The notes under the pieces were generated by a model that saw only the letters and a program-made list of their open reading frames with translations, ran no database searches and was not told the DNA's origin. From assembly GCA_964575455.1 (NCBI GenBank), contig CAZNRX010000016.1, positions 445 through 64,444 of the forward strand: a stretch of DNA of 64,000 nt, given 5' to 3'. Numbering within the stretch: the stretch's first letter is position 1; each line of letters starts with the position of its first letter. Origin of the DNA: an uncultured Anaerolineales bacterium. Lineage in GTDB: Bacteria > Chloroflexota > Anaerolineae > B4-G1. Made by a program: the position numbers and the translations under genes. Of the stretch, positions 3,525-39,505 are shown in pieces.

Positions 3525-4592
3525 TTACAGATCCAGGATGTCCTCGATCTGGTCGGTCAGCCACTGCAGGTCGGTGAGCGTCAGGTCGCCCATGTGCGCG
3601 ATGCGGAAGCAATTCTCCTTCAAGGGGCCGTAGCCGTTGGAGATCTGAGCGCCGCGCAGTGCCAGCTCGGCGTTGAGGTCGGCGACGCTGATGCCGCGGG
3701 TGTTCTTCACGTTGGTCACCGTGGGCGACAGGTAGCGCTCGTTGGAGAAGAGGTCGAAGTACTCGCGCGCCCAGTCCTGGACGTACGCTGCCATCTCCTG
3801 GTGGCGCTTCCAGCGGTTCTCCAGCCCCAGCACCATGATGTCGTCCAGCTGGGCATCAAGGGCCTCGATCAAGCTGATGCACGGCGTGGCGCGGGTCTGG
3901 TGTTTCGGGTACTTCTTGTCCATCTGCTCGTAGGAGAAGTAGTAGCCGCCATTGGCGACCTCCAGGGCGCGCTCCCGTGCCCGATCGCTGACGGCGCAGA
4001 CGGTCAGTCCGGGGGGCAGGGCGAAGCATTTCTGGGTGCCGGCCAGGCAGACGTCCAGGCCCCAGGCGTCGAACTCGATCTTGGCCCCGGCCATGCCGCT
4101 GACGGCGTCGACCAGGATCAGCACGTCCGGGTATTTCTCGTGGACAAGGTCAGCGATCTCGTCGACGGGGTTCAGCATACCGGTTGAGGTCTCGTTGAAG
4201 ACCACGGTCAGGGCGTCGTACTCGCCGCTGGAGAGCGCCTCGTCGACGATCTCGGGGGTGATGGGCTGACCCCACTCCGCCTCGACGGTGCCCGTGGGCA
4301 CGCCGTTCGCCTCGCAGACGGTGTGCCAGCGATCTGAGAAAGCGCCGTTGATGGTGTTGAGTATCTTGGTTTTCGTGGCTTGACGGATGGTCCCCTCCAT
4401 CACGCCGGTGGACGATGAGGTGAAGAGGTAGACGCGCTGCTCCGTGTAGAGGAGCTTCTGGAGCTTCTCCGTCACGCCTTTGTGCAGCGTGGAGTACTCC
4501 GGAGCGCGGTGGTGGATGATGGGCGCTGCCTGCGCTTCCAGGATCTCATCGCGAACGTGCGTTGGCCCTGGGGTGAAGAGCTTTCTGTACAT
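3525..4592 (-). CDS. class V (AGXT-family) aminotransferase, either serine-glyoxylate/serine-pyruvate aminotransferase or AGXT-type phosphoserine aminotransferase
   Basis: 355 aa with N-terminus FTPGPT, typical of AGXT/SerC class V enzymes. Strong RBS (CAGGAGG) sits 7 nt upstream of the ATG. Confidence 0.8.
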   Translation of the reverse strand: MYRKLFTPGPTHVRDEILEAQAAPIIHHRAPEYSTLHKGVTEKLQKLLYTEQRVYLFTSSSTGVMEGTIRQATKTKILNTINGAFSDRWHTVCEANGVPTGTVEAEWGQPITPEIVDEALSSGEYDALTVVFNETSTGMLNPVDEIADLVHEKYPDVLILVDAVSGMAGAKIEFDAWGLDVCLAGTQKCFALPPGLTVCAVSDRARERALEVANGGYYFSYEQMDKKYPKHQTRATPCISLIEALDAQLDDIMVLGLENRWKRHQEMAAYVQDWAREYFDLFSNERYLSPTVTNVKNTRGISVADLNAELALRGAQISNGYGPLKENCFRIAHMGDLTLTDLQWLTDQIEDILDL

Positions 4593-4739: not shown

Positions 4740-4776
4740 AAAAAAGGACGCACAAGCCTATCTGGCTGTGCGTCCT
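4740..4776 (-). terminator. intrinsic terminator serving as the expression platform of the glycine riboswitch
   Basis: On the minus strand, GGACGCACAGCCAGAUAGGCUUGUGCGUCC is followed by a U6 run. Its 5' arm abuts the P1 3' strand (ACAGAG) of aptamer 2. Confidence 0.7.
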
Positions 4777-5000
4777 CTGTCTCCCACCTGAGAGATTCCT
4801 CCCGAGTGATATTTGGGATTGCCCCTTCGGTATCCTTAGCGCGGCCCCAGGTGCTCTTGGAGCTGCTCTCCGGATTTTCCAGAGTGCCGAGGTAAGGGGT
4901 CCGGTGACCTGAGAGTTTCGTCGCCGTAGTCAGCCGGCCACGGCGAGTTGCCCCTTCGGTGTCCGCTTGGAGGCGGCCTCTCCCCCATACCCCAGGGCGG
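4777..5000 (-). promoter_or_regulatory. tandem-aptamer glycine riboswitch
   Basis: Minus-strand RNA contains GGAGAG...CACCGAAGGGGCAA...AAACUCUCAGGUCACCGGAC (aptamer 1) and CUGGA..GGAGAG...UACCGAAGGGGCAA...AAUCUCUCAGGUGGGAGACAGAG (aptamer 2). These match the conserved GGAGAG / CGCCGAAGGAGCAA / CUCUCAGGCAAAAGGACAGAG blocks of the gcvT riboswitch. Confidence 0.7.
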
Positions 5001-5020
5001 TCAGACTATGGTTTGAGCTT

Positions 5021-5049
5021 ATTTTACAGTATCCCTTCTCAAAAGTCAA
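5021..5049 (-). promoter_or_regulatory. sigma70-type promoter for the riboswitch-controlled operon
   Basis: Minus strand reads TTGACT - 17 bp - TAAAAT, about 15 nt upstream of the first aptamer. Confidence 0.45.
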
Positions 5050-5162
5050 TCTCGGCGAACTCGCGCTCCAGGTGACCGGCACTTCAAACGACTTCCTCCG
5101 GGACGACAGAGGGCTCTTCTGACACACGACGCGCGGCTTACAGGCTTGGTTGCAAATGCCGG

Positions 5163-7913
5163 TCACCTCAACGACGAAAACGATAAGGCGCGGGCGGAGC
5201 CGATGGTGGGATGATTCCTGAAGATGATGGGCAGGAACAGGCGCACCGGGGGGTAGTGAACCAGTACGCCTTCGAGGTCGTATGTCTCCTCGTCCCAGCT
5301 GTCCGTCCGCACCCGGTCGGCCATCTCGGCCACCGAGGCCAACCAGACATCCGGCCGGACGCTGGGCAGGGGTGCGTGAGAGAACCCCCAGGACTCGATG
5401 TGCCACCAGTCATCCGGTTCGGCGTTGGCCGGGTTGTCCGGGAAGCCGCTCTGATAGGTGGCGTTGATGGCCTGGACGTAGGCCAGATCGGGGTTCATGC
5501 GCACCCACAGGCCCGCTGTGTGTCGGAAGCCGTCCCAGGCCTGATGGATGTGGGGCTTCGTGCGCGGCGCCTGGACGTGGTCGGAGCTGGCGAAGACGAG
5601 CATGACCTTCAGGTCGGGCGCCTGGGTGATGAACTTGGGGTAGTTGTGCACGGTGATGCGATAGGGCCACGCCTGCTTTGTCTCGGTGTAGGTCGCCACG
5701 TCCGCGGGCCAAGTCTGGGGCGTCAAAGCGCCGTTGTCCAACAGAGCCTTGGTGAGGGCGCGTGAGTAGTAGCGCTTGTTGTTCCATAACCTAGGTCCCT
5801 TCTGCCCGACGATATACTGAGGGTGCCCATGGCCCGCCGCGAAGTAGGGACGGTCCATGCCACTTGGATCTTCGTACCACCCGACGGTGGAGTAGTCGAC
5901 GGTGACCGTGACAGGGCTGTAGGCCTGTTCCTCGAAGAAGGGGTTGGGAACTGGGTGGTGTTGGTCGTCGAAGTGACCCAGCTCGCAGGCGTACATCTCG
6001 TCACGGGTAGGGTTCTCCCGCCCGATCAGGTACTTGACTCGGGGCAGTTCAGAGCCGTGCTGGGCCAGGACGTTGGTTGCCACTACGCCGGCGTGAGACG
6101 AAGCGAAAAGCCCCACGTTGTCGGTGAGAACGTTCGTCGTGGCGATCAAGTTCTGGATGGTGTTTCCGTCGATGTCGGTCGTCATGCCCGAGGCGAACTT
6201 GATCACGTCGCGCAGGGCTTCCAGGGAACGAGGTCCGCCGTAGTCGTAGACACCCTGGCTGCGCGCGCCCGATGCAAGATCAGTGCGCTCCGGCCAGAGG
6301 TAGGAGACGGTGACAGCGCCGATCTCGGTGGTGTTGTTGACGCGGTGGAAGTCGCTGCCCGGGACGAACCAGGTGGAGGCCTCCACGACGACAGGGGCGC
6401 CCTCGGGGTAGCGCGGTAGCTCGGGGGCCTCGACCCGCACGGCGATGTCGTCTCCTTCGGAGTCGACGTAGGTGATGCGCTCGGCGCCGGGTGGCGCTGG
6501 CACGTTGACGCCCTGGGCCCGATCCGCCATCTGATAGACCGCGGCCAGCTGATAGATCGCCTTGGGGACGTCCGGGGGCAAGCAGTAGAGCTCTGCTCCT
6601 GACCAATCATCGGGCGGTTGGTTGGGGACGCGATTGGGCAGGTCGTCACGGCCAGCTAAGTCGGGATCGCCCTCGATCAGATAGGCGGGGCTGGGGTTGA
6701 TCTGCACCCAGGCACCGTTCTCGCGCCAACCGTCGAAGGCTTGGTGGATGTGCGGTTTGTCGCGTGGCGCTTGGACGTGGTCCCGCACGCCGCAGAGGAC
6801 CATCGCCTCCAGACCTGGCAGATGGGTCAGCGCCTGGTCGTAGAGCCAGACGGATTCCCGGAGGTACCAGTAGACGTTGGCTTGTGCTGGGTTGGCGATG
6901 TCCGAAGGCCAGGTGTCTGTGAAGACGTGTCTGTCGGCCAGGGCCTGAGTGACAGCTCGGGAGTAGACCTCTAATGCGCCGCTGGGATGGGGGAAGGGAT
7001 CGAGGGGGAAGTCCTCATCGAGCTGCAGGACGCCATCTAGGTCGAGGTCAGGCGTTTGCAGGCCCGTGAACGGGTCTGCAACCGTCGTGTACTCGTCATC
7101 GCCGTTACCGTCGTGGAAGATGCGACGCGTGGTGGCGTCTGGATCGTAGGTCAGGTCGTCGTAGGTCACATCCAGGATGCGCCGTCCGTAGTCCACGTAG
7201 CGTGGGTTCATGAAATCGCCTTGGTGGGGATGGCCCGGTTCCAGCACGATGCGGCCCAGGTCGCGCGTGGCTGCCTGGCTGGAGACGGGGGTCTCCCACT
7301 GGATGACGTAACGCAGATGTCCGGCAAGGTCCTGCCCGTGCTGGGCGGCCACGGCGACGACGATGTTGCCGCCGTTGGAGACGCCCTCCAGGCCGATGTT
7401 GTCGTGCAGCACGGGTACGGGCACGATCTCATCAATGGAGCGTCCTTGGCTGTCGGACAGCTCGCCGGCGGCGTAGAGGATGACGTCTCGCATGGCAGCG
7501 ATGGAACGAACACCGCGGTAGTCGTAGGTCCCGTCGGAACTGAGTCCAGCCGCCGTATCTTCCCCACCGGGGAATAGGAAGCTGATGATGATCACGCCAT
7601 CCGTCTCGGGCGGCAGGCCGTGGCTAATGCCTTTGGCTTCGTAGCCCCCGGCTCCCCAGATGAGCACAGGCGCCCCCTGTGGATATCTGGCGTGGCCAGC
7701 CCTGGGGGTATGGACTCGGACAGCCAGCGTGCCAGTGGGGCTGCCCGTGCTTGGCGATGGGAGTCTCACGTCTAGGGGCGTGGCAGGAGCGGGGGAGGCG
7801 CGAGGGGGCGGTGCTGCGGCCAGGCTAAGGCTGAGCAGCAGAGCCGAGCCGAGCATGGCGACGCCAAATGAGAGCGCCCGTCTGCAGGAGACGGAACGGT
7901 GCATTGGGGACAT
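5163..7913 (-). CDS. secreted protein with two tandem alpha/beta-hydrolase-like domains (putative esterase/peptidase; function unknown)
   Basis: N-terminal signal peptide. Internal duplication of about 400 aa (RYPQGAPVLIWGAGG.../RYPEGAPVVV...; HVQAPRDKPHIHQAFDGW/HVQAPRTKPHIHQAWDGF). GVSNGG nucleophile elbow (GxSxG) in repeat 1, degenerate ASSHAG in repeat 2. Confidence 0.65.
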   Translation of the reverse strand: MSPMHRSVSCRRALSFGVAMLGSALLLSLSLAAAPPPRASPAPATPLDVRLPSPSTGSPTGTLAVRVHTPRAGHARYPQGAPVLIWGAGGYEAKGISHGLPPETDGVIIISFLFPGGEDTAAGLSSDGTYDYRGVRSIAAMRDVILYAAGELSDSQGRSIDEIVPVPVLHDNIGLEGVSNGGNIVVAVAAQHGQDLAGHLRYVIQWETPVSSQAATRDLGRIVLEPGHPHQGDFMNPRYVDYGRRILDVTYDDLTYDPDATTRRIFHDGNGDDEYTTVADPFTGLQTPDLDLDGVLQLDEDFPLDPFPHPSGALEVYSRAVTQALADRHVFTDTWPSDIANPAQANVYWYLRESVWLYDQALTHLPGLEAMVLCGVRDHVQAPRDKPHIHQAFDGWRENGAWVQINPSPAYLIEGDPDLAGRDDLPNRVPNQPPDDWSGAELYCLPPDVPKAIYQLAAVYQMADRAQGVNVPAPPGAERITYVDSEGDDIAVRVEAPELPRYPEGAPVVVEASTWFVPGSDFHRVNNTTEIGAVTVSYLWPERTDLASGARSQGVYDYGGPRSLEALRDVIKFASGMTTDIDGNTIQNLIATTNVLTDNVGLFASSHAGVVATNVLAQHGSELPRVKYLIGRENPTRDEMYACELGHFDDQHHPVPNPFFEEQAYSPVTVTVDYSTVGWYEDPSGMDRPYFAAGHGHPQYIVGQKGPRLWNNKRYYSRALTKALLDNGALTPQTWPADVATYTETKQAWPYRITVHNYPKFITQAPDLKVMLVFASSDHVQAPRTKPHIHQAWDGFRHTAGLWVRMNPDLAYVQAINATYQSGFPDNPANAEPDDWWHIESWGFSHAPLPSVRPDVWLASVAEMADRVRTDSWDEETYDLEGVLVHYPPVRLFLPIIFRNHPTIGSARALSFSSLR

Positions 7914-7951
7914 GGCGCGATGATCCTCCTGTCACTAGACTGGTTCAGGCT

Positions 7952-10087
7952 TTATTCCGAGGCGCGATAGGTCTCGATCAGCTCTGGCATGGTCTGCCAG
8001 ACGATGTCTCCTCGGTCGACGTACTCTTGCAGGCCTTCGAAGAAACCGTGCAGCAGTTGTTCGTCGATGGCCTGTCCGAAGCTCCACACGAAGAAGAAGG
8101 CGTTGATTTGGCCTGGTGCACGGGCTGCCAGGGCATCCTCAATGAGCTCGAGCGCGACATCCACATCCTCTTCGGTCATATCGTTGTGAGTGTGGGAACC
8201 GGACGCGAGCTTGGCCTCGTGGAGGCCGTGGATGGTGCCCACCGTGGGGACGATCAGCAGCCCGTTGTCGGCCGGCGTGGTCCAACTGCTGCCATCCGCG
8301 GCTCGCCAGGGATGGAGGGCCGCCGGGAAATCCCCTGGGTACGGGTCGTGACACATCCCATCACCGGGGCCCTCACAGGCCTGGATTTCCGGCGGCTGCT
8401 GCTCACCTGGGAGGGAGCGGAGGCAGTAGTTGACGATGCCAGACGTGGCCTGGATACCCACCTGACGGGCGGCGGTGACCCAGTCCAACTCGGAGCAGAT
8501 GCCGGACGCATGAACAACAGGGATGCCCATCGCTTCCATGTCGGCGCGCAGCTGGCGCAGCTGGGAGGTGAATGCCTCCTGGCCTCCGGATAGCCGGGGG
8601 TTGCCACCCAGATCGGCGTGGATGCCGACACCGTCCCCGCGCTTGTACAGCTCCTTCAGCACGTTCGGCTCGAAGGTGGCGCTGGGACCAATCAGGTTGG
8701 AGGTCTCCCAGGTGATGGGCATGTCGTACGCATTGGCCAGATTGGAGTAGGCCAAGATGCGCTCGCTGTATCGCTCGTATACCTCCTGGTTGTACCCGGT
8801 CAGGCTGTTCCCGAGCGGATAGCCCTCCAGGTGGACGGACAAGCCCACGTAGAGAGGGGGCATCTCGCTCGGCTTCGAAACCGGTGGTTGATCCTGCGCG
8901 GCGTAGGGCGGCTCGACGCCCTCGAGGAAGAAGATGTTGGGGCGAGCGTCGAAGTCCCGACGCCAGATGTCGACGGCCTCTGAGTAGGTGACGTAGGTTG
9001 CTCGGCCGGATTCAATCAAGGGCTTCAGCTGATCCAGCAGAGCCAGCAACTCCTGATGGCGCTGGAGGTCGAAGATGATGCTCTGCGGCACCGCGATCGA
9101 GGCGGTGTACATCTTGTCTCGGTCGATGGTCCCTTCCTCGAGTTGGTCCGCCGCCGTTTGCACGAACTCCGGGGTGGATCGCCAGCCTCTCTCGGCGCTC
9201 CAGTTGCCGTGCTCACCTGGGCCCACGTAGATCAAGGAGCCCTCGGCGTCGTGGCTCCAGAAGCTCTGGCCGGCTCCCTTGGGCCTCCAGATGCCGCTGG
9301 CGAGGTCATCCTTGCTGAAGTCCCCCAGGTGATGGTCGTGGCTGACGGCCAGGGTCAGGATCTTGGGATGCCAGGTGAAGTCGGGGTAGATCCATCCCGC
9401 CTCGCCCTGTGAGAGTCGGGCGAACTGGTCGGGCGCGTCCCAGACGAAGCCGCCGACGTTCTCACTGATGGACGGCGTGACCTGCTCGCCCAGGAAGCGG
9501 ATGTCGGCGTAGTTGTCCTGACCCTCCTCCCATCCTCCCTCCTGGTGAGGGTCGATTTCGAAGCCGTAGTGGGTGGATAGGTAGTCGATCACGTTCTGAC
9601 CGGCGGTGGCTGCCCGCATGGCGTCCGTCTCGCACGCCGATACCCCCTGGAAGAACTCGTACTCGACCTGCAGGTTGACGGCCGCTCCATGATTCGACAC
9701 GGCCTCTGCGAACTGGAGCAGCTTCTGCCGGAAACCAGGGTAGGCATCGCAGTTGGTGTAGACGGGCACGTCCTCGATGTGGCCGGCAACCGTCACGTAG
9801 ACGGGTGGGAGAGGCGCAGCCTCGCCCGCGGGTGTGGCAGCTTCGGCGGGCGCGCCGCAATCCTCGGGACAGGTCTCGGCATTCTCCGGCCCGTCGCACA
9901 CACCATCGCCGCAGCGCCTCTCGCTTTCCTCTTCTGTCTCCTTGGGCGGCGGCTGAGAGGGCGTGGATGTGGGCGCAATGACGGGCGTAGGGCTCGGCTC
10001 CGGGATAGGGAGCACGGACGCGACCTGGCACGCTGTGAGGGCGCACAAGGCCAGCAGGGCGACGGTCATCTTGGAAACACGGTACAT
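7952..10087 (-). CDS. secreted lipoprotein with Cys-rich CGDGVCDGPENAETCPEDCG module; function unknown
   Basis: Lipobox LTAC, then Pro/Thr/Ser linker, then a compact Cys-rich module followed by about 600 aa of unrecognised domains. Start may be the internal ATG (MTVALL). Confidence 0.6.
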   Translation of the reverse strand: MYRVSKMTVALLALCALTACQVASVLPIPEPSPTPVIAPTSTPSQPPPKETEEESERRCGDGVCDGPENAETCPEDCGAPAEAATPAGEAAPLPPVYVTVAGHIEDVPVYTNCDAYPGFRQKLLQFAEAVSNHGAAVNLQVEYEFFQGVSACETDAMRAATAGQNVIDYLSTHYGFEIDPHQEGGWEEGQDNYADIRFLGEQVTPSISENVGGFVWDAPDQFARLSQGEAGWIYPDFTWHPKILTLAVSHDHHLGDFSKDDLASGIWRPKGAGQSFWSHDAEGSLIYVGPGEHGNWSAERGWRSTPEFVQTAADQLEEGTIDRDKMYTASIAVPQSIIFDLQRHQELLALLDQLKPLIESGRATYVTYSEAVDIWRRDFDARPNIFFLEGVEPPYAAQDQPPVSKPSEMPPLYVGLSVHLEGYPLGNSLTGYNQEVYERYSERILAYSNLANAYDMPITWETSNLIGPSATFEPNVLKELYKRGDGVGIHADLGGNPRLSGGQEAFTSQLRQLRADMEAMGIPVVHASGICSELDWVTAARQVGIQATSGIVNYCLRSLPGEQQPPEIQACEGPGDGMCHDPYPGDFPAALHPWRAADGSSWTTPADNGLLIVPTVGTIHGLHEAKLASGSHTHNDMTEEDVDVALELIEDALAARAPGQINAFFFVWSFGQAIDEQLLHGFFEGLQEYVDRGDIVWQTMPELIETYRASE

Positions 10088-10096
10088 TGATCGACC

Positions 10097-10468
10097 TCAA
10101 CTTTGTCTTGATTCTCCGGGACGGCTGCTTTCAAGGCCGTCGAAGATGAGCCTGGTCAACAGCTCGGGCAGATCCTTCCATCCCGCCAGCGTCTCATCGT
10201 CCTCGAGAAAGCGGAGGATGATCAGGCCGATGAAGGTGCTGTGGAGCACCCGGCCAGTCAGGGATACGTCGACGGGCTCGATGGTCCCTCGTGCGATCTC
10301 GGCCTCGAGGTACTGCTCAAGAAGGGTGATCGTCGGCTGGAAGAACTCCTCATAGAAACGCTCCTGCAGCTCAGGGTTGACGAGCATCTCCGGGAGAGTG
10401 GCCTGGAAGATGCGGTGGTTTTGCTCAATCAAGTCGAGGTAGCGGGAAAAGGCTACTCGTGGCCGCAC
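10097..10468 (-). pseudogene. TetR-family regulator C-terminal (ligand-binding) domain fragment without HTH; likely truncated paralog
   Basis: The 123 aa product aligns with the C-terminal half of the full TetR at 55487..56230 (NHRIFQATLPEMLV.. versus NEPMLRAVISEILI..; LLTRLIFDGLE versus LSSFLLDGL). No HTH-encoding sequence is possible upstream because the kinase stop is at 10470. Confidence 0.5.
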
Positions 10469-10469
10469 C

Positions 10470-13061
10470 TTATGCCTGCCGCAGCGTGAAGAAGAACGTA
10501 CTTCCTTCGCCGACCTTGCTGTCTACGCCGACCTTTCCACCAAGCTTGTCCATGATGCGCTGGACGATGGAGAGTCCCAGCCCGTGCCCCTCAGCCTTGA
10601 CTTGGTGGAGACGCGTGAACGGCGTGAATAGGCGGGCCTGTTCCTTTGGGGTCAGCCCCTGACCATTGTCGCGCACCCAGAAGCGCACAGTGCCGTCGGG
10701 CTGGGGGGTGGCGCCCAGCTCCACGCGGGGAGGGCGGCCGCCGTACTTGATGGCGTTGCTCAAGTAGTTGGCCCATACCTCCTCGATCCAGGCGGCGTGG
10801 CCCATGGCTGTGGGCCATTTATCCGGCATGACGATCTCGGCGCGGTGCTGTTCAATCAGATACGCGAGGCGGTCCTGGGCGGCGGCCACGATCGGTGCCA
10901 TGTCCAAGGGTTTCGTGGCGACCTCTCCACGCCGCACTTCCGAGAGTAGGAGGAGCTCTCCGATGATGTTGTTCATCCGGTCGGCCGTGGCCACAATAGT
11001 TGCTAGCGCTTCCTGCCGGACGTCGCCCGGCAGGCTCTCATAGTCGTCGCCCAGGAGCTCGGCATAGCCGACGAGGTGCTGCAAGGGATTCTTCAGATCG
11101 TGGGCCACTGTGTGCGCGAAGGCGTCCAGTTCCTCATTGCGCGCCTCCAGTTGAGTGGTGTATTGGCGCAGAGCCTCTTGCGCCTCCTTGAGCTCGCTGA
11201 TGTCGGTGTAGACGGCGACCGCGCCGGCAAAGTCTCCCTCAATGAGGATGGGGGAGCCGGCCACGAGGACATCGACCGGTGAACTGTTCTTCCGGTAGCG
11301 GGTGGTCTCCACGGGCGCTAGCCTCTCGCCGCTCATGACGGCTTGGGTGAAGCCGGTTGCCTGCTCCAGTGCGGCTGGCGTGGTGATCAGGGGATCGAGA
11401 TGCTGACCGACGACCTCGTCGCTGGTGTAGCCAAACAGCCTCTCTGCGCCGGCGTTCCACTCCACGATACGATGGTGCGCGTCGAGGGTGACGATGGCGT
11501 CGGGGGCGGCCGACAGCAGGCCCTCCAGGTAGAGGCGGCGCTTCCTCGACTGGTTGAAGAGACGAGCGTTCTCGACAGCCACCCCAATTTGCTGGCCGAT
11601 GATGGTCAGCAGGGCGTGGTCGGCTTCCGACATAGAGCGGGGTTCACGGTCGAAAAGGCAGAAGGTGCCGAGGACCTGGTCCCTATGGACGATGGGGGCG
11701 CCGGCGTAGGCCTGGAGACCCAAGCGAAGCAGGCCCTCGACATCCGCAGGTCCTCCCTGGCGCAGGTCTTCGAGGTCCAGAGGCTCGCCTTTCCGGTAGA
11801 CGACGTCGCACAGGGTGCCCTCCAGCCCGCGGGTTTCGAGTGACTGGGTGAGCGACGTTGGAAGGCCAGCGTGGCTGAACAGCGCCAGCCTATCCGTCCC
11901 TTCATCGGCCAGGGTGATCAAGCCACCTGTGAAGCCGAGGGCGTCCATGGTGCTCGAGAGTGCCTCATCAAGGCGTTCGTGGAGATCCATCGAGCTGGCC
12001 AGCGCCCGAGCCACCGCGTTGCGAGCCATAAGATCGCGGTTCTGACGCTGCAGCGCTTGCTCTGCCTGCACACGTTCGGTGACGTCTCGGAAGATCCCGC
12101 GCGTGGCGACGGGGGTGCCGTCCTCGAAGCGGCAGTTGATGTTGCCCTCGACGATGATCTGCTCGCCATCCTTGGCGACAAACGTCGCCTCCACGCGTTG
12201 CGAGCACTCCTCCTCGGTGAGGCGCTGCAGGATGGCCCGGCAGTGAGCCTGGCTATCGGGGTGGATGACATTGAAGATGGAGAGCTCGTCGAGCTCCTCC
12301 TCGCTGTAGCCCAGCGTCTCGTGCCAGGCGCGGTTAGCGTAGAGGATCGATCCATCGGGGGCCACGCTCTGCACCAGATCGTTGGCGCTGTGCAGCAGGT
12401 CGCGATAGCGTCGCTCGCTCTCCTGCGCAGCCTCTAGTGTGGCTTCCAGCTCCTTCTTACGCTTCTCGTCGCGGCTGCGCAGGCGCTGCATCCGCCGGAG
12501 ATTGCGAAGCCGCGCGGCGTGGATCAGCGCGGAGAGCACCGTGGAGGAGAGCAGAGCGATGCCGAAGTGGAGCGAAGTGGGTGAGGGAGCAGCGGCGAGC
12601 GAAGGATGCGCCAGTACCGCCGCGCCCCAACCGGTAAGGGTGGTGGAGATGAGAGCGACAAGCCACGCGGTGGATAGGAAGAGGGATCCCGCTCCGACGA
12701 TCAGCAGCAGGAGGTTGGTCGTCTGCTCAAGATCAGCCGTCAGAATGAGGTGGAGCAGGCTGTTGACCAGCACCAGCCCGGCGATGCCGGCCCCGATGGC
12801 GTGGGCCCAGCGAGGAGCGATTGAGCCGCGCCTCAGCAGGACGGTCAGGCCAAACAGGATGAGGGACGTGCCAGCTGCCACAGGGCTCATCACGGCGGCC
12901 GTGGCCTGCGGCAGCACGAGCAGATGGCTGATGGTGAACGCCAGGTACAGACCACCCAGTCCGACCGAGACCGAGGGCAGGCTTCTTAGAACGACGTGCT
13001 TGGGTCTGAAAACGGTATCCGAGTCGGCGGTTCCAGGCTGTGGCGGCTGTCTCCGTGCCAT
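10470..13061 (-). CDS. multi-domain sensor histidine kinase (N-terminal multi-TM domain, PAS, GAF, PAS, HisKA, HATPase_c)
   Basis: Hydrophobic N-terminus, PAS/GAF-like central regions, H-box (VAHDLKNPL) and C-terminal ATPase with G-boxes (DNGQGL, GHGLGLSIV). Confidence 0.85.
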   Translation of the reverse strand: MARRQPPQPGTADSDTVFRPKHVVLRSLPSVSVGLGGLYLAFTISHLLVLPQATAAVMSPVAAGTSLILFGLTVLLRRGSIAPRWAHAIGAGIAGLVLVNSLLHLILTADLEQTTNLLLLIVGAGSLFLSTAWLVALISTTLTGWGAAVLAHPSLAAAPSPTSLHFGIALLSSTVLSALIHAARLRNLRRMQRLRSRDEKRKKELEATLEAAQESERRYRDLLHSANDLVQSVAPDGSILYANRAWHETLGYSEEELDELSIFNVIHPDSQAHCRAILQRLTEEECSQRVEATFVAKDGEQIIVEGNINCRFEDGTPVATRGIFRDVTERVQAEQALQRQNRDLMARNAVARALASSMDLHERLDEALSSTMDALGFTGGLITLADEGTDRLALFSHAGLPTSLTQSLETRGLEGTLCDVVYRKGEPLDLEDLRQGGPADVEGLLRLGLQAYAGAPIVHRDQVLGTFCLFDREPRSMSEADHALLTIIGQQIGVAVENARLFNQSRKRRLYLEGLLSAAPDAIVTLDAHHRIVEWNAGAERLFGYTSDEVVGQHLDPLITTPAALEQATGFTQAVMSGERLAPVETTRYRKNSSPVDVLVAGSPILIEGDFAGAVAVYTDISELKEAQEALRQYTTQLEARNEELDAFAHTVAHDLKNPLQHLVGYAELLGDDYESLPGDVRQEALATIVATADRMNNIIGELLLLSEVRRGEVATKPLDMAPIVAAAQDRLAYLIEQHRAEIVMPDKWPTAMGHAAWIEEVWANYLSNAIKYGGRPPRVELGATPQPDGTVRFWVRDNGQGLTPKEQARLFTPFTRLHQVKAEGHGLGLSIVQRIMDKLGGKVGVDSKVGEGSTFFFTLRQA

Positions 13062-13138
13062 CGTTCCTCCTAATCAAGGTAGAAGTCATATGCCGGTCTG
13101 CACTACACAGAGTATACCACAAAGAGGTGCCGCTGTCT

Positions 13139-13177
13139 GTAGGAGACATCCTACGTTTGTGTAGGACTCATCCTACA
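13139..13177. promoter_or_regulatory. two adjacent palindromes of the form GTAGGA-N4-TCCTAC, upstream of the histidine kinase
   Basis: GTAGGAGACATCCTAC and TGTAGGACTCATCCTACA lie 6 bp apart in the kinase 5' region. Confidence 0.3.
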
Positions 13178-13236
13178 AAGGAGCCGAGCGGGGTCGACCG
13201 CCGGCCGGTGACTACGTCGACCCGGAGGGCCTGGCG

Positions 13237-14073
13237 CTATCTCCGGTCGGGGGCCAGCCTCTTCAGCACATCTCTCAAGGCCTGAAGGGTCGGTCCACGC
13301 CCGGCCATGACGACGTCGTTGCCTGGTCCCCCTTTGACCATAGGAGCGTAGTCAATGGGGCTGCCGCTTAGGTGTCGCAGGTCCTGCCCCTGGGCTCGGT
13401 TGATGGCGTGAGCCGCTGCGATGTCCCAGATGTGGACGCCCGGGCCTTCTAGGGCGCCGATGACGGCGGGGTAGATCAGATGGAAGCAGAGATGGAGAGC
13501 GGCGCTGCCGATCCCTCTGATCTTCCCGATGTAGCCGCTCAGGTCGAGCTGCTTGTGGATCCGGGAGGTGACCATCAGGTTGGAGCGGGTGGAGATGGAC
13601 CGGGCTGGTCGCGGCGGCGGAAGCGCAGATCCGTTCAGCGTGGCTCCACGATTACCATTGGCGACGATGAGCAGGTCGAGTCGGGGGGCGAAGATGACAC
13701 CTGCGATGGGGGTCAGGTCACCGTCAAGCAGACCCACGGAGACACACCAGCCAGGCATACCTTGACTGAAGACGTCCGTGCCGTCGATGGGGTCGACGGC
13801 GAAGGTGAGCGCCTTCTCCGGATCGAAGGGATGCCGCGATTCCTCGGTGACGATGTTGGCCTGCGGGTGAAGGGGGCTGATGCGCTCGACCAGGAAGTCC
13901 TCAACCCTGCGGTCGGCCTCGGTGACGACAGAGTTGTCGGCCTTGTAGGTGCGGTCCGAGAAGGCCATGGCGCGCTGTTCCTGCAGGGCTATCTGGCCCG
14001 CCGCTTGGACGTGCGCTATGATATCTGCTACAATGCTGGTTACCTTGTGTCCCTTGGGCACGACTGCCTCCAA
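13237..14073 (-). CDS. inositol monophosphatase family protein (IMPase/CysQ/HisN-type phosphatase)
   Basis: Metal-binding motifs EESRHPFDP, VDPIDGT, WDIAAAH. Confidence 0.8.
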   Translation of the reverse strand: MEAVVPKGHKVTSIVADIIAHVQAAGQIALQEQRAMAFSDRTYKADNSVVTEADRRVEDFLVERISPLHPQANIVTEESRHPFDPEKALTFAVDPIDGTDVFSQGMPGWCVSVGLLDGDLTPIAGVIFAPRLDLLIVANGNRGATLNGSALPPPRPARSISTRSNLMVTSRIHKQLDLSGYIGKIRGIGSAALHLCFHLIYPAVIGALEGPGVHIWDIAAAHAINRAQGQDLRHLSGSPIDYAPMVKGGPGNDVVMAGRGPTLQALRDVLKRLAPDRR

Positions 14074-30590: not shown

Positions 30591-33500
30591 TCCGCGCGTG
30601 GAGGATCGGGCACGTCAACTGGCCGAGAGGCATAAAGCCACGCGCGGTTCTGGCGTCTCGACCCGAGGGCCCGGGCTAGACCGCCTGTCGACCGATTTGC
30701 TGAAGCGTCTCCCCGTGATCGAGCGGGTGCTCCGCGAGGCCTACACGGGCTTTGCCAGCGATGCCTTTGGCAGCGCGGTGCCCGAGGAACGGGGTACCCT
30801 GTCGGGCGTGGCCGAATGGGTCCTGGACAACTACTATGTGATCCAGAAGGCGATCCGGCAGATTGGGGAGAACATGCCGCGGGGCTACTACCGCCGGCTC
30901 CCCAAGCTCGTCGGCACAGACGACCGCTCACCCTTGAGCGGTTACCCTCGGGTGTACGCTGTGGCCCGAGAGATCATCCGCATCGCAGAAGGCCAGGTCG
31001 ACGTCGACCGCGTGCGGCGCTTCATCCGCGCATATCAGGAGGTCCGGCCCCTGACCATGGGGGAAATCTGGGCCCTGCCGACGATGCTGCGCCTGAGCCT
31101 GGTGGAGCTTCTGGCGTGGACCGTTGGTGGCGCAGCAGGGCTTGAGATCCCCATCAATGAGGAGCCGTTTCCCGGGCCAGTGGAGCTCGAGAACAAAGGC
31201 GACGAGGCCATCGTGGCCGGCGTCATCAACAGCTTGCGCGCCATTGACGACCACGAATGGGATGACTTCTTCGAGGCCACGAGCCTGGTGGAGGAGACGC
31301 TTCGCCTGGACCCTGCAGACGTCTACCCAGAGATGGACTTCGACAGCCGCGATCGCTACCGCGGCGTGGTCGAGAAGCTGGCGCGGGAGACGGATCAGTC
31401 CGAGCAGGAGGTGGCGCGAGCGGCGCTCCGCCTAGCCCGGAGACGGGCCGCCCGTCCTCGGGCCGCCCGCCCTCGGGCCGAGCACGTCGGTTTCTATCTG
31501 GTGGGCCGCGGGCGGGCGCAGCTTGAGGAGGCTGTCGGCTTTCGACCGGGGCTGTTGGAGCAGGCGCGCCGCTGGGTGTTCGGGCACCCCACACCGGTCT
31601 ATCTCGGCAGCATCGCCGTCATAACCGGGCTCGTCTTGGCCGGGGTACTGCTGTACGCGCACGGTGCTGCCGGGGGTGGGCAGCCCGCGGTCGGGCTGGG
31701 GGCTCTGGCGGCCGTCGCGCTGCTGACCCTTCTGCCGGCGTCGATTGTGGGCGTCAACCTCACAAACATGGTCATCACGCGCGCGGTGCCGCCGCGGGTG
31801 TTGCCCAAGCTCGATTTCAGCGACGGGATACCTGCTGACTATCGTACGATGGTCGTGATCCCGGCCCTGTTGAGCAGCGACGACGAGGTGGACTTCCTGC
31901 TGCGGCAGCTGGAGCTGCACTACCAGGGGAACGCTGACCCTCAGCTGGGGTTTGCGCTTCTGAGTGACTTCGCTGACGCGCCACAGAAACAGATGCCAGA
32001 GGATGAGCACCTGCTGCAGCGGGCCAGGGAGGGCATTCGACGCCTCAATCGCACGTACGGCAAGGGGGGGCGTGCTGAGGGTGCTGAGGGGCCGTTTCCA
32101 CCGCGAGAGACTCTGGAATCCCAAGGAGTCGTGCTGGATGGGGTGGGAGCGGAAGCGCGGCAAGCTGGTCGAGTTCAACCGCCTGCTGCGAGGCGAGCAT
32201 GAGACGTCGTACGTGGTGAAGATGGGCAATCTCGATTTCCTCCCCGAGGTGACGTACGTGATCACCCTGGATGCGGACACGGTCTTCCCACTGGACAGCG
32301 GGCATCGGTTGGTTGGCACCATGGCCCATCCACTGAATCAGGCTGAGTTCGACGCAGATGGAGCGGGCGGCCCGACAACGGGCGGCCCGACAACGGGCGG
32401 CCCGTATTCGGGCTATACGGTCCTCCAGCCGCGGACGGAGGTCAAGCCCACGGCAGTCACCCGCACCTGGTTCAGCAGGATCTTCGCGGGCGATGCAGGT
32501 CTGGATCTCTACACGCGCGCTGTCTCCGACGTCTATCAGGACTTCTTCGGTGAGGGGATCTACATCGGTAAGGGCATCTACGATGTGGATGCCTTTGAGC
32601 GCAGCCTGCGTGGGCGGGTGCCTGAGAACGCCCTGCTGAGTCACGACCTCTTCGAGGGCATCCACGGTCGGGCTGCCCTGGTGACGGACGTGGTGCTCTT
32701 TGAGGACTACCCCCCGACCTATCTGAGCTATGCACACCGAAAGCACCGTTGGGTGCGGGGTGACTGGCAGATTCTGCCCTGGCTCTTCCCGAGGGTGCCT
32801 CACGCCGGTGAAGGGACGATTCCCAACCCGCTCTCGGTTCTCGATCGCTGGAAGAGCTTCGACAACCTGCGGCGCAGCTTGCGCGCGCCCGCGCTCTTCG
32901 CCTTGCTCGTGGCCGGCTGGGTCTGCCTGCCTGGGTCGCCGCTGGTCTGGACGCTGATCGCGGTGGTGGCGTCTGGGCTGCCACTGGTCACGGGTGCGGT
33001 CACGGAGATGGCACGCCGTCTGGGAGGCGGACAGTCAGCTCCGGCCTCGTCGACGTTCTGGGAGCGGATGGGAAAGGAGGCTGCGCGCTGGCTGCTGAGC
33101 ATCGTATTCTTGCCCTACGAGTCGATTCTGATGGGCGACGCCGTTGTGACCACGCTGGTGCGTCTAACGATCAGCCGCAAGCGACTGCTGCAGTGGACGA
33201 CGGCCGCTCACACTGTGCGTCTCTTTGGGCGTGAGTCGAAGATAAAGTTGCTCTGGCAGGAGATGAGCGGTGGGCCGGTCCTGGGGCTCATGGTCGCGGT
33301 CGCGCTGGCCTTGTTCCGGCCCATGGTACTGCCCCTCGCTGCGCCGTTCCTTCTGTGCTGGCTGGTCTCCCCTCTGGTGGCGGCCCGCATCAGCCAGCCG
33401 GTGGAGGAAGAGGAGGCGTCGCTTTCCGGCGCTGAGCGTCGACGGCTGCGGCTTCTGGCCCGCCGCACGTGGCTGTATTTTGAGCGCTTCGTCGGCCCGG

Positions 33501-36500
33501 ACGATCATTGGCTGCCCCCCGATCATTTCCAGGAGGAGCCGCAGGGGAGGGTGGCGCACCGCACGTCCCCAACCAACATCGGACTGATGCTCCTCTCCTC
33601 TCTCGCTGCCTATGATCTGGGCTACATCGGGCTGATGGAGCTGTCGCTCCGCACGAGCGATGCCTTTGACAGCATGGATGAGCTTGAGAGGTACCGGGGC
33701 CACCTGCTGAACTGGTACGACACCAGAACCCTGGATTCGCTGGCCCCGCGCTACGTCTCCACGGTGGACAGCGGGAACCTGGCGGCGTGTCTGATTGCGC
33801 TTGGGCAGGGGCTGGAGCAGCTGGAGCAGGAGCGCATCCTGCGCTGGCAGCGTTGGCGAGGGCTGTGCGATGCGTTGGATGTGTTGAAGCAGATCATCAG
33901 GGCCGCGGAGCAGGGGGTGGACGCTGCTGCTCAGGAGGAGATTGAGCGTGCAGCCGCGGATCTGAGTCAATGGATCGACCGGATGCGCGAGAGGGTGCTC
34001 GCTGTGAGGGAGGAGCAGGAGCGTTGGATCCCTCTGCTCGCGGAGCTTGAAGAGGAGGTCGCCGAAGGCCTCAACCGACGGCTCCAGGCGCTGCTCGATG
34101 CAGGCTCAGGGATCCTGGGCACTGCGACCCTGCGCGATCTCCGGCTCTGGTCGGAGAGGCTTCACCTGCATCTGCGTGACTTGCGCAAGGGTATAGAGAG
34201 AGCTCTGCCCTGGGTCTTCCTGCTGAACGATCCCCCGCAGGTTCTCGTCAGTGAGCGATCCGAGGAGCTGACCCCAGCTATCGCTGAGGCGTGGCGAGGG
34301 ATTGAGGAGGCGCTGCCGCTCGATCCGCGCCTGGGGGAGATAAGCGCCGTCTGTCGCAGGGCTCGAGAGGAGCTGGAGGAGCTCCGGCAGCTGCTGAAGG
34401 AGGAGCTTGCGTCGCTGGACAGGGAGCAAGAGCCCGATCTCGTCGGTCAGCTGAAGGACGCCCTTGATTGGTCCGAGGAGCTGGATCAAGCCCTGGCGTC
34501 GGCCCGGATGACGGCTGGCGGCATGATGATCGGCCTTGACGATCTGATACAGCGGGCTGAGGCCTACGTTGACGACATGGCTTTCGGCTTCCTGTACGAT
34601 GATCGCCGGGACGTGTTCCACATTGGCTACCAGGTGGACAGCGAACAGCTGGATCGCAATCACTACGACCTGCTTGCTTCGGAGGCGCGCATTGCGAGCA
34701 TCGTGGCCATCAGCAAGCGGGAGGTCCCACAGGGCCACTGGCTGCACCTGAACCGTCCTCTTTCTCGCGTCGACGGGCTGCGCACGCTGCTCTCGTGGGG
34801 CGGGTCGATGTTCGAGTACCTGATGCCGGACCTGATGATGCGCAGGTATGAGGAGACGCTGCTCAACCAGGCGAACCGGGCCGCCGTGCGTCGCCAGATC
34901 GCCTATGGAGATGAGAAGGGCGTCCCCTGGGGGGTCTCCGAGTCGGGTTACTATCGTTTTGATGCGCAGCTGAACTACCAGTACCGGGGATTTGGCGTGC
35001 CCGGCCTGGGGCGGAAGCGAGGGCTGGGCGACGATCTGGTGATCGCCCCGTACGCCTCGCTGCTGGCCGTGGACGTGGCGCCGGAGGAGGTGTTGGAGAA
35101 CATCGACCTGCTGATTGAGCAGGGAATGCAGGGCCACTATGGTTTGTACGAAGCGCTGGACTACACAGCGTCGCGCCTGCCGATGGGGCAGAGGCGGGCC
35201 ATTGTGCGCTCCTACATGGCCCACCATCAAGGAATGATCATGGTGGCTCTATCTAACTACCTCAACGACCACGACATTGTGAATCGATTCCATCACGATC
35301 CCCGCATTCAGAGCGTGGAGTTCTTGCTTCAGGAACAGGTCCCCGGCCAGGCTCCGCTTGAGGAGGTGCCGGAGGAAAGCGTGGGCATCGAGCGGCTGCA
35401 GCGCGAGCGGGTGGAGCTTGAGCCCTGGTCCGTGCCAACCGACGCTCCCATGCCTCAGGTTCACTTCCTGTCCAACGGTCGCTACGGCTCGCTGATCACA
35501 GAGGCTGGCGCTGGCTACAGCACCTACTCTCCCAGGCGATCGGGCGCGGGGGAGACGGTGGCCCTGACCCGTTGGCGGGCGGACACCACGCGCGACTGCT
35601 GGGGGACGTGGATCTACGTGCAGGACCTGCACATGCAGGATCTGCACATGCAGGATCTGCACATGCAGGATCTGCACATGCAGGATCTGGAGGGCGGTCG
35701 CCCCGGTGAATCAGGCCTGTGGTCCGTGACCGAGCAGCCGACCCATGCGCGTGCGGACGACCAGCTGGCCCGGTTCTATCCCCATCGGGCCGAGTTCCGG
35801 CGGCGGTATGGCGATATCACCCTGCACACGGAGATCGTCGTGGCGCCGGAGGAGGACGTCGAGATTCGGCGCGTCAGCCTGATGAATCACGGCGATGAGG
35901 CTCGGCGTCTGCGGGTCAGCAGCTACGCGGAGGTGGCGCTCGCGGCTCAAGACAGAGACCGGCGACATCCGGCGTTCAACAAGATGTTCATCGAGAGCGA
36001 GCGTCTGTCGGAGGTCAACGCGCTTCTGTTCAAGCGGCGTCCTCGCTCAGCGAGCGACTCGCGTGGATCCGCCATAAGAAGAGTAAGCGAAGCGGCAGCT
36101 GGAGAGCCGTTGTGCATGGCTCATATGCTCGTCACGGCGCCCGGCATGGAGGACACAGGCGCCCACGAGAGCGACCGGGCGCAGTTCATCGGGCGCGGGC
36201 GCACGGCGCGCGAGCCAGCGGCCTTTCGCCGGAGGTACGACGGGCCGCCTGAGGCCGAGTGGTTGTCCGGAACAACGGGAGCTACCCTGGATCCGGTCAT
36301 GGCCTTGGGCCAAGACGTCGAGGTAGAGCCTCACGCGACGGTCGAGCTCGCCTATCTGACGCTGGCTGCGGAGTCGCGGGAGGATGCGATTGCCTTGGCT
36401 CGCCGGTATCAGTCCTGGACGCGCATCGACCGGGCGTTCGATCAGGCCCACGCGCAGAGTGAGTTGGAGCTGCGTAACCTGGATCTCGAGGTCTCTGACG

Positions 36501-39500: not shown

Positions 39501-39505
39501 GCTAG
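30571..39505 (+). CDS. cyclic beta-1,2-glucan synthase (Cgs/NdvB-like: N-terminal domain, TM region, GT84 glycosyltransferase, GH94 phosphorylase-like domain), with frameshift at a G7 tract (32064-32070)
   Basis: ORF 30571..32202 and ORF 31964..39505 are consecutive parts of one Cgs homolog (GT84 signatures YVITLDADT, LSHDLFEG, RWVRGDWQ; GH94-like C-terminal two-thirds). The frames switch at the GGGGGGG homopolymer; one fewer G gives the continuous reading ..RLNRTYGKGGVLRVLRGRFHRERLWNPKESCWMGWERKRGKL. Confidence 0.75.
35621..35690 (+). repeat. 15 bp in-frame microsatellite (CAGGAYCTGCACATG)x4.6 encoding (QDLHM)n
   Basis: Perfect tandem copies inside the glucan synthase CDS. Confidence 0.85.

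Follow-up and report, generated by a model that had tools for sequence, protein, structure and literature searches.

A tandem glycine riboswitch with a predicted ON layout precedes a DUF1015-containing, putative serine-to-3-phosphoglycerate operon in Anaerolineae

Introduction

The tandem glycine riboswitch of the Bacillus subtilis gcvT-gcvPA-gcvPB operon was reportedly described by Mandal and colleagues in 2004. We describe here an element which resembles this gcvT type (RF00504) in having two aptamers, each with a three-way junction, and a short linker between them, in its GGAGAG, ACCGAAGGGGCAA and CUCUCAGG...GGAC cores, and in an intrinsic terminator competing with the P1 helix of the second aptamer, according to an ON design. 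It lies on the minus strand of a 64,000-nt stretch of DNA from an uncultured Anaerolineales bacterium (GenBank assembly GCA_964575455.1, contig CAZNRX010000016.1, positions 445 to 64,444), hereafter called the window in its full length, and precedes three genes encoding a class-V aminotransferase, a 2-hydroxyacid dehydrogenase and a protein of the DUF1015 family. The riboswitch class is well known; only its target genes are unusual. Compared with the gcvT type, the window switch would control these aminotransferase, 3-phosphoglycerate dehydrogenase (PGDH)-like and DUF1015 genes and not glycine cleavage genes, its second aptamer carries a 36-nt insert in P2 (P2 reaching up to 91 nt in relatives) and a GGAAAA junction, the overlap between P1 and terminator is of only 3 nt, and a structured leader of about 145 nt follows the terminator.

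The link between glycine riboswitches and serine-pathway genes is not entirely new, as cases with serC or serA, and probably with DUF1015, have been reported. COG4198 is presumably the same family as DUF1015. Kazanov et al. (2007; PMC2211319) reported glycine riboswitches ahead of serC (COG1932) and of the uncharacterised COG4198 in metagenomes, and Sun et al. (2013; PMC3766115) reported one ahead of serCA in Clostridium cellulolyticum. These cases share with the window the control of phosphorylated serine pathway genes by a glycine riboswitch. They differ in that they were assigned to Proteobacteria or Firmicutes, that the COG4198 cases have a single aptamer, and that their serC is the standard COG1932, whereas the window gene is AGXT-like. 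In the passages of these reports considered here, polarity and pathway direction are not discussed, and the only targets given for Chloroflexi in the 2013 survey are gcvTHP.

DUF1015 was a large family of unknown function until the GapMind 2026 preprint (bioRxiv 10.1101/2024.10.14.618325), in which it was named SerBK and found remotely similar to free serine kinases. There, CBO1128 of C. botulinum complements an E. coli serB mutant, 47 of the 50 genomes with a DUF1015-serA cluster are devoid of serB, and BT1151 is needed for L-serine use in B. thetaiotaomicron. That preprint makes no mention of riboswitch control of DUF1015, and leaves undecided whether the protein is, in the cell, a kinase serving serine utilisation or a substitute for phosphoserine phosphatase in serine synthesis. 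The SerBK systems (C. difficile CDIF630erm_01132, CBO1128, BT1151) are similar to the window in that DUF1015 shares its transcript with genes for an aminotransferase and a dehydrogenase of the serA type; the window protein is, however, a distant Chloroflexota member and its partner aminotransferase is of class V, not standard SerC.

A comparable route is proposed in archaea. In T. kodakarensis, serine would be converted to 3-phosphoglycerate via SerK, the aminotransferase TK1548 and SerA, and gene clusters for serK, a dehydrogenase and an aminotransferase are present in Desulfurococcales (Makino et al., 2016; PMC5120207); a route from glycine to 3-phosphoglycerate via SerK, with the glycine cleavage system and serine hydroxymethyltransferase (SHMT) leading to serine, has been proposed as well (Michimori et al., 2024; PMC11032457). 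The three activities proposed for the window, from serine or glycine to 3-phosphoglycerate, are the same, and Thermococcales proteins (PH1308, 1wwk, 5x0b/1vk1) figure among the best solved or structural relatives of all three window proteins. The kinase candidate differs, being a 438-aa DUF1015 protein in the window and a ParB-like SerK of about 240 aa in archaea, and the window system is bacterial, arranged as a single operon and predicted to be riboswitch-controlled. Finally, the serC RNA motif of alpha-proteobacteria, a small cis-regulatory hairpin before serC-serA with no known ligand (Corbino et al., 2005; PMC7266159), is alike as an RNA located upstream of a serC-serA operon and otherwise unrelated; it has no match in the window.

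Results

The promoter and the two glycine aptamers

All our results are best read, and with fair probability, as a glycine-ON transcriptional switch driving an operon for the conversion of serine to phosphoserine and 3-phosphoglycerate. A preliminary description of this DNA, made from its letters, had placed at 4740-5050 a tandem glycine riboswitch of the gcvT type, together with a promoter and an attenuator, and it is right in substance and coordinates. The sigma-70-type promoter which it had pointed out is present at 5049-5021 of the minus strand, on which all features below lie unless otherwise stated. It is composed of TTGACT (5049-5044), a 17-nt spacer and TAAAAT (5026-5021), agrees with the consensus at 10 of 12 positions and is the sole match in 1 kb, for 0.2 expected. 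The leaders of all relatives, also of those which have lost the riboswitch, have a TTGACW-17-TAGAAT/TAAAAT box at this distance.

Glycine aptamer 1 (4995-4887) matches the whole RF00504 model (positions 1-94 of 94) with 52 bits, above the gathering score of 32, and reaches 113.8 bits with our own covariance model, R1. Its P1 helix (4993-4983 paired with 4899-4889), GGAGAG junction, P2, P3/P3a and P3b are all there. A conserved leader-linker helix of 3 bp, P0, is formed between GCC (4998-4996) and GGC (4888-4886; alignment columns 14-16 with 126-128); its first pair is GC in 17 of 18 sequences, the second CG in 17 with one compensated UA, and the third CG in 14 and UG in 4. When a kink-turn was sought at this leader-linker, its G.A/A.G signature was not recognised and only the 3-bp P0 was seen.

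The three-way junction (P1, P2 and P3/P3a/P3b) of each aptamer is supported by covariation. In an alignment of 18 leaders from which the P2 insert was trimmed (A2), 96.3% of the cells of 54 pairs are paired and 21 pairs are compensated; none of 500 shuffles is as good, and slid controls are at most 47% paired. Compensatory changes affect 9 of the 14 pairs of P1 and P0 and 6 of the 7 pairs of P3b in aptamer 1, and all four P2 pairs in aptamer 2, while the P3/P3a core of the latter is near-invariant, 6 of its 8 pairs never varying.

Glycine aptamer 2 (4884-4775) is less well recognised, its RF00504 match (4883-4776; E = 0.011 in a permissive search of a 651-nt region) having 25 bits, which is below the gathering score. 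Its P1 pairs CUCUG (4884-4880) with CAGAG (4779-4775), the J1/2 junction is GGAAAA (4880-4875), P2 pairs AUCC (4875-4872) with GGAU (4835-4832), and the P3 core is intact. The low score is due to a lineage-specific, variable insert of 36 nt (4871-4836), the sequence of which is not conserved and which extends P2: orthologous second aptamers without insert have identical core sequences and obtain 34.4-41.7 bits, above the threshold. Of the hallmark blocks named in the preliminary description, ACCGAAGGGGCAA and CUCUCAGG...GACAGAG are genuine in both aptamers, whereas the GGAGAG ascribed to aptamer 2 (4871-4866) falls inside the variable insert, is missing from relatives and is coincidental; as a junction it was rejected.

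The sub-threshold score, the GGAAAA junction and the insert could also mean that aptamer 2 is decayed, leaving either a switch of one aptamer, the other being a "ghost", or a non-functional relic with a constitutive terminator, all the more so as real decay is observed in this family (L022 and L045 hybrids, and L032 without the 5' half of aptamer 2; see below). This is nevertheless very unlikely. The ACCGAAGGGGCAA and CUCUCAGG cores are intact and conserved, as are P1 and the pairs that close P2, and the same core is kept in ten other loci with similar inserts. The P2 element, whose length is 11-13 nt in the compact relatives and ranges from 44 to 91 nt in the others, is always a closed hairpin or a branched stem in which the AUCC/GGAU closing pairs are kept. 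Moreover, the junction also varies (GGAAAA, GGAGAA, GGAAAG or GGAGAG) among relatives whose second aptamer passes the Rfam threshold.

A terminator overlapping the second P1 helix

Directly 3' of aptamer 2, an intrinsic terminator (4777-4740) is formed by GAGGACGCACAGCC-AGAUA-GGCUUGUGCGUCCUU followed by U6 (4745-4740), that is, a 14-bp stem with one bulged U and an AGAUA loop. It folds with an energy of -28.6 kcal/mol (z = -5.7), and across 18 loci 91.6% of its cells are paired and 6 of its 14 pairs are compensated. A simple terminator scan gave no match to this hairpin, presumably owing to the bulged U.

The overlap between this terminator and the 3' strand of aptamer 2 P1, already noticed at the outset together with its ON-switch layout, stands: G4777, A4776 and G4775 are common to the 5' arm of the terminator and to the CAGAG strand of P1. 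Such an overlap, of 3-6 nt per locus, is found in all 19 leaders examined. At column 213, the shared A or G faces U in P1 (UA in 14, UG in 4), and its terminator partner covaries (AU in 13, GC in 3); in loci where CAGAG becomes CAGGG, the P1 partner remains U and the partner in the terminator is C instead of U. The shared nucleotide is therefore selected to pair in both helices, and P1 and terminator are therefore mutually exclusive. When the P1 nucleotides are blocked, the window hairpin weakens from -25.3 to -18.6 kcal/mol, and in compact relatives a hairpin of -7 to -11 kcal/mol is left, separated from the U-tract by 2-3 nt.

Closing P1 thus removes the terminator pairs proximal to the U-tract, which is the layout of an ON switch. 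No antiterminator alternative to the terminator arms is obvious, either by eye or in the minimum free energy fold. A 5-nt complementarity with the P3b loop of aptamer 1, GGCUG/CAGCC, was considered as an OFF-switch antiterminator and rejected, as it is not conserved in relatives. By this logic of the sequence, ON polarity is highly probable, and both aptamers are predicted to bind glycine. The transcript would start about 7 nt past the -10 box (5026-5021). In the absence of glycine, the 4777-4740 hairpin and its U6 would terminate transcription ahead of the genes. Glycine bound to both aptamers would hold aptamer 2 P1 (4884-4880 with 4779-4775) closed and deprive the terminator of its U-tract-proximal bottom pairs, so that the polymerase would read into the three co-transcribed genes.

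The 5'-untranslated region contains an additional conserved, structured segment of about 145 nt (4739-4596), which separates the terminator from the Shine-Dalgarno sequence (AGGAGG, 4604-4599). On alignment A1, RNAalifold predicts 19 pairs, of which 5 are compensated, in one long-range helix (CGAUAGGU/AUCUAUCG) and a second, inner one. This segment is confined to the sub-clade of the window (L001-L004 and L007-L010, in addition to the window) and has no Rfam match. A leader peptide was rejected, as the 8-codon AUG open reading frame (ORF) of the window has no AUG in L003 and L004. This leader may constitute a second regulatory layer.

The regulated operon and the route that it may encode

The coding region begins at 4592, with AGGAGG ahead. 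No internal promoter or intergenic terminator splitting the operon was found, and the two terminator-like matches, at chance level, are both inside the dehydrogenase coding region; the initial view that the switch heads an operon for the aminotransferase, the dehydrogenase and DUF1015 is thus retained. The metabolic route proposed with it, of a serine/glyoxylate-hydroxypyruvate-glycerate type, has to be revised, and the substrates of the three enzymes given below are those predicted from their relatives.

The second gene (3431-2487) encodes a short D-3-phosphoglycerate-dehydrogenase-like enzyme of the SerA type (Pfam 2-Hacid_dh and 2-Hacid_dh_C), without ACT or ASB domain. It obtains 325 bits with the PGDH model TIGR01327, to be compared with 196 for glyoxylate reductase (PRK13243) and 155 for GhrB. 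With TIGR01327, the protein stays short of the equivalog cut-off of 454; this is attributed to its covering only positions 1-298 of the 525 of the model, the catalytic part. Its best solved relatives are all PGDHs, with 237-246 bits (246 for the human enzyme, 237 for P. horikoshii 1wwk), for at most 166 bits with solved glyoxylate or glycerate reductases. By its sequence, this dehydrogenase is 3-phosphoglycerate-dehydrogenase-like and not hydroxypyruvate-reductase-like.

The first gene (4592-3525) encodes a class-V, AGXT-like aminotransferase of 355 aa (Pfam Aminotran_5), whose nearest solved relative is PH1308 of P. horikoshii (2dr1) with 228 bits, the next having 122 bits; no NCBIfam equivalog is reached. 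In a Thermococcales enzyme table, PH1308 and TK1548 are uncharacterised class-V aminotransferases (there Class IV), annotated as serine or serine-glyoxylate enzymes. The window protein is a possible candidate for an archaeal-type phosphoserine aminotransferase, TK1548, the presumed counterpart of PH1308, being the aminotransferase placed in the SerK route.

The third gene (2484-1168) encodes a DUF1015/"SerBK" family protein of 438 aa, with 295.7 bits on PF06245, its residues 6-348 covering the whole profile (1-325 of 325). When its AlphaFold2 model is compared to the PDB with Foldseek, only five matches are clearly separated, 1vk1 of P. furiosus and four structures of the free serine kinase from T. 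kodakarensis, 5x0j, 5x0e, 5x0b and 5x0k (E from 2e-4 to 4e-3, probability 0.97-1.0). Its sequence profile (A3) has no match among PDB sequences, even at E = 10. Judged from the modelled fold, a serine-kinase-like function fits, in agreement with the SerBK proposal.

The non-phosphorylated route first proposed would consist of a serine:glyoxylate or serine:pyruvate aminotransferase producing hydroxypyruvate, then reduced to D-glycerate, with DUF1015 in a later step, for instance as a glycerate kinase. The relatives of the aminotransferase, which are mostly serine-glyoxylate, serine-pyruvate and alanine-glyoxylate aminotransferases, plus BhcA-like ones, are in its favour, and so is DUF1015, which appears kinase-like from its modelled fold and may have another substrate in this lineage. 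A glyoxylate/hydroxypyruvate-reductase-like gene is, moreover, a conserved neighbour: such a paralogue adjoins the operon in many loci and is present in the window at 9-620 of the plus strand, where it is cut by the window edge and its product is 74% identical to the L026 paralogue (7830-8810), which has 412 bits on PRK13243. This GhrB-like paralogue is, however, convergent and outside the riboswitch-controlled unit. For the operon dehydrogenase itself, the PGDH model gives 130 bits more than the glyoxylate or hydroxypyruvate reductase models and the best solved relatives are all PGDHs, the fold match of DUF1015 is a serine kinase, and the genetics of other DUF1015 proteins (serB complementation, serine-utilisation phenotype) points to serine and phosphoserine. 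A non-phosphorylated route is therefore rather unlikely. The tie between DUF1015 and glycine catabolism suggested in the preliminary description can be kept, along a different putative route, from glycine to serine, phosphoserine and 3-phosphoglycerate.

Conservation and loss of the riboswitch among relatives

The loci compared were anchored on DUF1015, 35 being from genomes and 80 from metagenomes. The 120 matches listed for DUF1015 (72-99% identity) are unnamed proteins or annotated proteins of Chloroflexota/Anaerolineae metagenome-assembled genomes. The aminotransferase-dehydrogenase-DUF1015 order is kept down to 38-44% DUF1015 identity. A tandem glycine riboswitch lies directly upstream of the aminotransferase gene in 25 related loci (L001-5, L007-10, L012-15, L017, L020, L021, L026, L032, L034, L036-38, L041, L044 and L049), all Anaerolineae-like and with a DUF1015 identity of at least 57%.

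The synteny between riboswitch and DUF1015 holds in these 25 loci and was not seen further away. In the wider survey, which covered the 80 metagenome loci (DUF1015 identity 37-88%) with model R1, and subsets of them with Rfam, and which did not reach the Firmicutes members, no glycine aptamer was found in the group at about 40% identity, even with the three-gene order kept, nor any other Rfam regulator upstream. In one distant metagenome locus of this survey, L108, a c-di-GMP-I-GGC riboswitch (RF03167, 63 bits) was observed at 9999-10075 of the minus strand; it is unrelated.

Four relatives (L011, L019, L023 and L025) have lost the riboswitch and kept the promoter box upstream of the aminotransferase gene. 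In L025, only the 3' half of the terminator remains, directly after the -10 box, and in the leaders of L011, L019 and L023 a terminator hairpin is not apparent. As these riboswitch-less relatives have the same promoter, the switch has been lost repeatedly within the clade. Partial losses are observed as well. Aptamer 2 is decayed in L032, its 5' half being gone, and a single hybrid aptamer, whose 5' half is that of aptamer 1 and whose 3' half is that of aptamer 2, is present in L022 (about 3640-3790) and L045 (3660-3815). These hybrids resemble the product of a deletion between two repeated CACCGAAGGGGCAA boxes. Their P1 strands are mismatched and their terminator is retained, and they are probably decayed switches.

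Genomic neighbourhood

The window stops directly past the reductase-like neighbour, and what flanks the operon further on is known from relatives. In L026, a gene located at 9715-12981 of the minus strand encodes an SHMT-GcvT fusion of 1088 aa, which passes both the SHMT and the GcvT NCBIfam cut-offs; we know of no earlier description of such a fusion. With the L026 fusion protein as the tblastn query, orthologues are found in at least 13 loci, in convergent orientation on the downstream side of DUF1015 (L001, L003, L005, L007-9, L012, L024, L027, L036, L037, L041 and L045). In about 11 loci, a paralogue, 47-57% identical, lies upstream of the riboswitch in divergent orientation (L004, L007, L009, L010, L012, L023, L026, L039, L041, L045 and L049). 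As these SHMT-GcvT genes flank the operon in relatives, the neighbourhood is a glycine/serine island. L026 also contains, directly before its SHMT-GcvT gene, a second and near-identical tandem glycine riboswitch (13055-13254, minus strand), P1/terminator overlap included. This is the case in L026 only, the fusion gene being without riboswitch in L041 and others.

Directly upstream of the promoter, two ORFs of the window (5163-7913, 916 aa, and 7952-10087, 711 aa) were considered as parts of the system and rejected, as they have no counterpart in L001-L035; neither has a Pfam or NCBIfam match. A 20-nt inverted repeat (5070-5089 and 5149-5168), with arms that are 85% complementary and separated by 59 nt, is situated between the promoter and the end of the upstream ORF, and may be a terminator or an insulator of the upstream gene. 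The window also contains an ORF of 2513 aa on the plus strand (31964-39505).

Discussion

Polarity and direction of the pathway

The glycine-ON reading of the switch finds additional support in relatives. gcvT is a classic glycine-induced target, and the copy which precedes the SHMT-GcvT gene of L026 has the same expression platform, which argues for ON polarity. The relatives deprived of aptamers argue in the same sense, since L025 keeps the 3' half of the terminator only and since no hairpin is apparent in L011, L019 and L023. Under this polarity, glycine would be converted to serine by the glycine cleavage system and SHMT, as suggested by the SHMT-GcvT fusions of relatives. DUF1015 would then phosphorylate serine, phosphoserine would be transaminated to 3-phosphohydroxypyruvate, and the latter would be reduced to 3-phosphoglycerate. 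For this catabolic direction taken by itself, we consider the chances to be a little better than even.

Several points weigh against this reading. In the sub-clade of the window, P1 has only 5 bp, and closing it leaves an 11-bp hairpin which ends one C from U6. As this residual hairpin, of -18.6 kcal/mol, stays so close to the U-tract, the switch may be inefficient in this sub-clade, or may depend on the additional downstream leader. The aminotransferase obtains only 51 bits on TIGR01366 (serC_3), for a cut-off of 401, meets no curated SerC model, and its relatives are annotated as serine/glyoxylate-type enzymes. The structural model of DUF1015 is of mediocre quality (pLDDT 71), its most conserved motifs being modelled with low confidence, and the TM-scores of its fold matches are low (0.26 and 0.44). 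Finally, some of the genetic data on DUF1015, and the relatives without riboswitch, point to the opposite direction, as discussed below.

Since a DUF1015 protein complements serB and most genomes with the cluster are serB-less, the operon may be a serine biosynthesis route in which DUF1015 replaces SerB, the riboswitch then exerting a glycine-OFF feedback or a mere housekeeping modulation. The rescue of the E. coli serB mutant by CBO1128 and the 47 of 50 DUF1015-serA cluster genomes without serB are arguments for it from other lineages. Within the present one, L011, L019, L023 and L025 have the same operon and the same promoter without any riboswitch, which suits a housekeeping role, and a feedback repression of serine/glycine synthesis by glycine would be metabolically sensible. 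A glycine-OFF design is, however, difficult to reconcile with the leaders. In every locus, the terminator and the 3' strand of P1 share nucleotides, and the stabilisation of P1 can therefore only weaken the terminator; there is no obvious antiterminator that the ligand could disrupt, and the same platform stands ahead of the SHMT-GcvT gene in L026. The gcvT genes are reportedly induced by glycine in all characterised cases (Mandal et al., 2004). An induction by glycine of de novo serine synthesis would, for its part, be metabolically pointless. Biosynthesis under glycine-OFF or housekeeping control thus appears quite unlikely, and glycine-induced utilisation of serine remains the reading that we prefer.

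Significance for DUF1015 and for the Anaerolineae

As a predicted ON switch, the riboswitch provides an independent physiological clue to DUF1015, whose gene would be expressed when glycine is abundant, across a clade of Anaerolineae. If it is so expressed, only the utilisation direction, from serine to phosphoserine and 3-phosphoglycerate, would make sense, and the flanking SHMT-GcvT genes point to the same direction. The predicted glycine-ON regulation of the window thus adds evidence for the kinase, utilisation side of the alternative left by the SerBK preprint.

One possibility, to which we give somewhat less than an even chance, is that all these genes form a bacterial glycine-assimilation module, not known to have been described as such, in which SHMT-GcvT would convert two glycines to serine and a reversed phosphorylated serine pathway, with a glycine-induced DUF1015 kinase, an AGXT-like phosphoserine aminotransferase and a short PGDH, would lead from serine to 3-phosphoglycerate. 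If this is true, such a module could serve in place of serine deaminase, for instance as the outlet of a glycine or reductive-glycine pathway in Anaerolineae, and the riboswitch would be direct physiological evidence for the kinase action of DUF1015/SerBK in vivo. The known glycine-riboswitch regulon of Chloroflexota is extended beyond gcvTHP by these predicted targets, and the direction in which DUF1015 works in vivo becomes easy to test.

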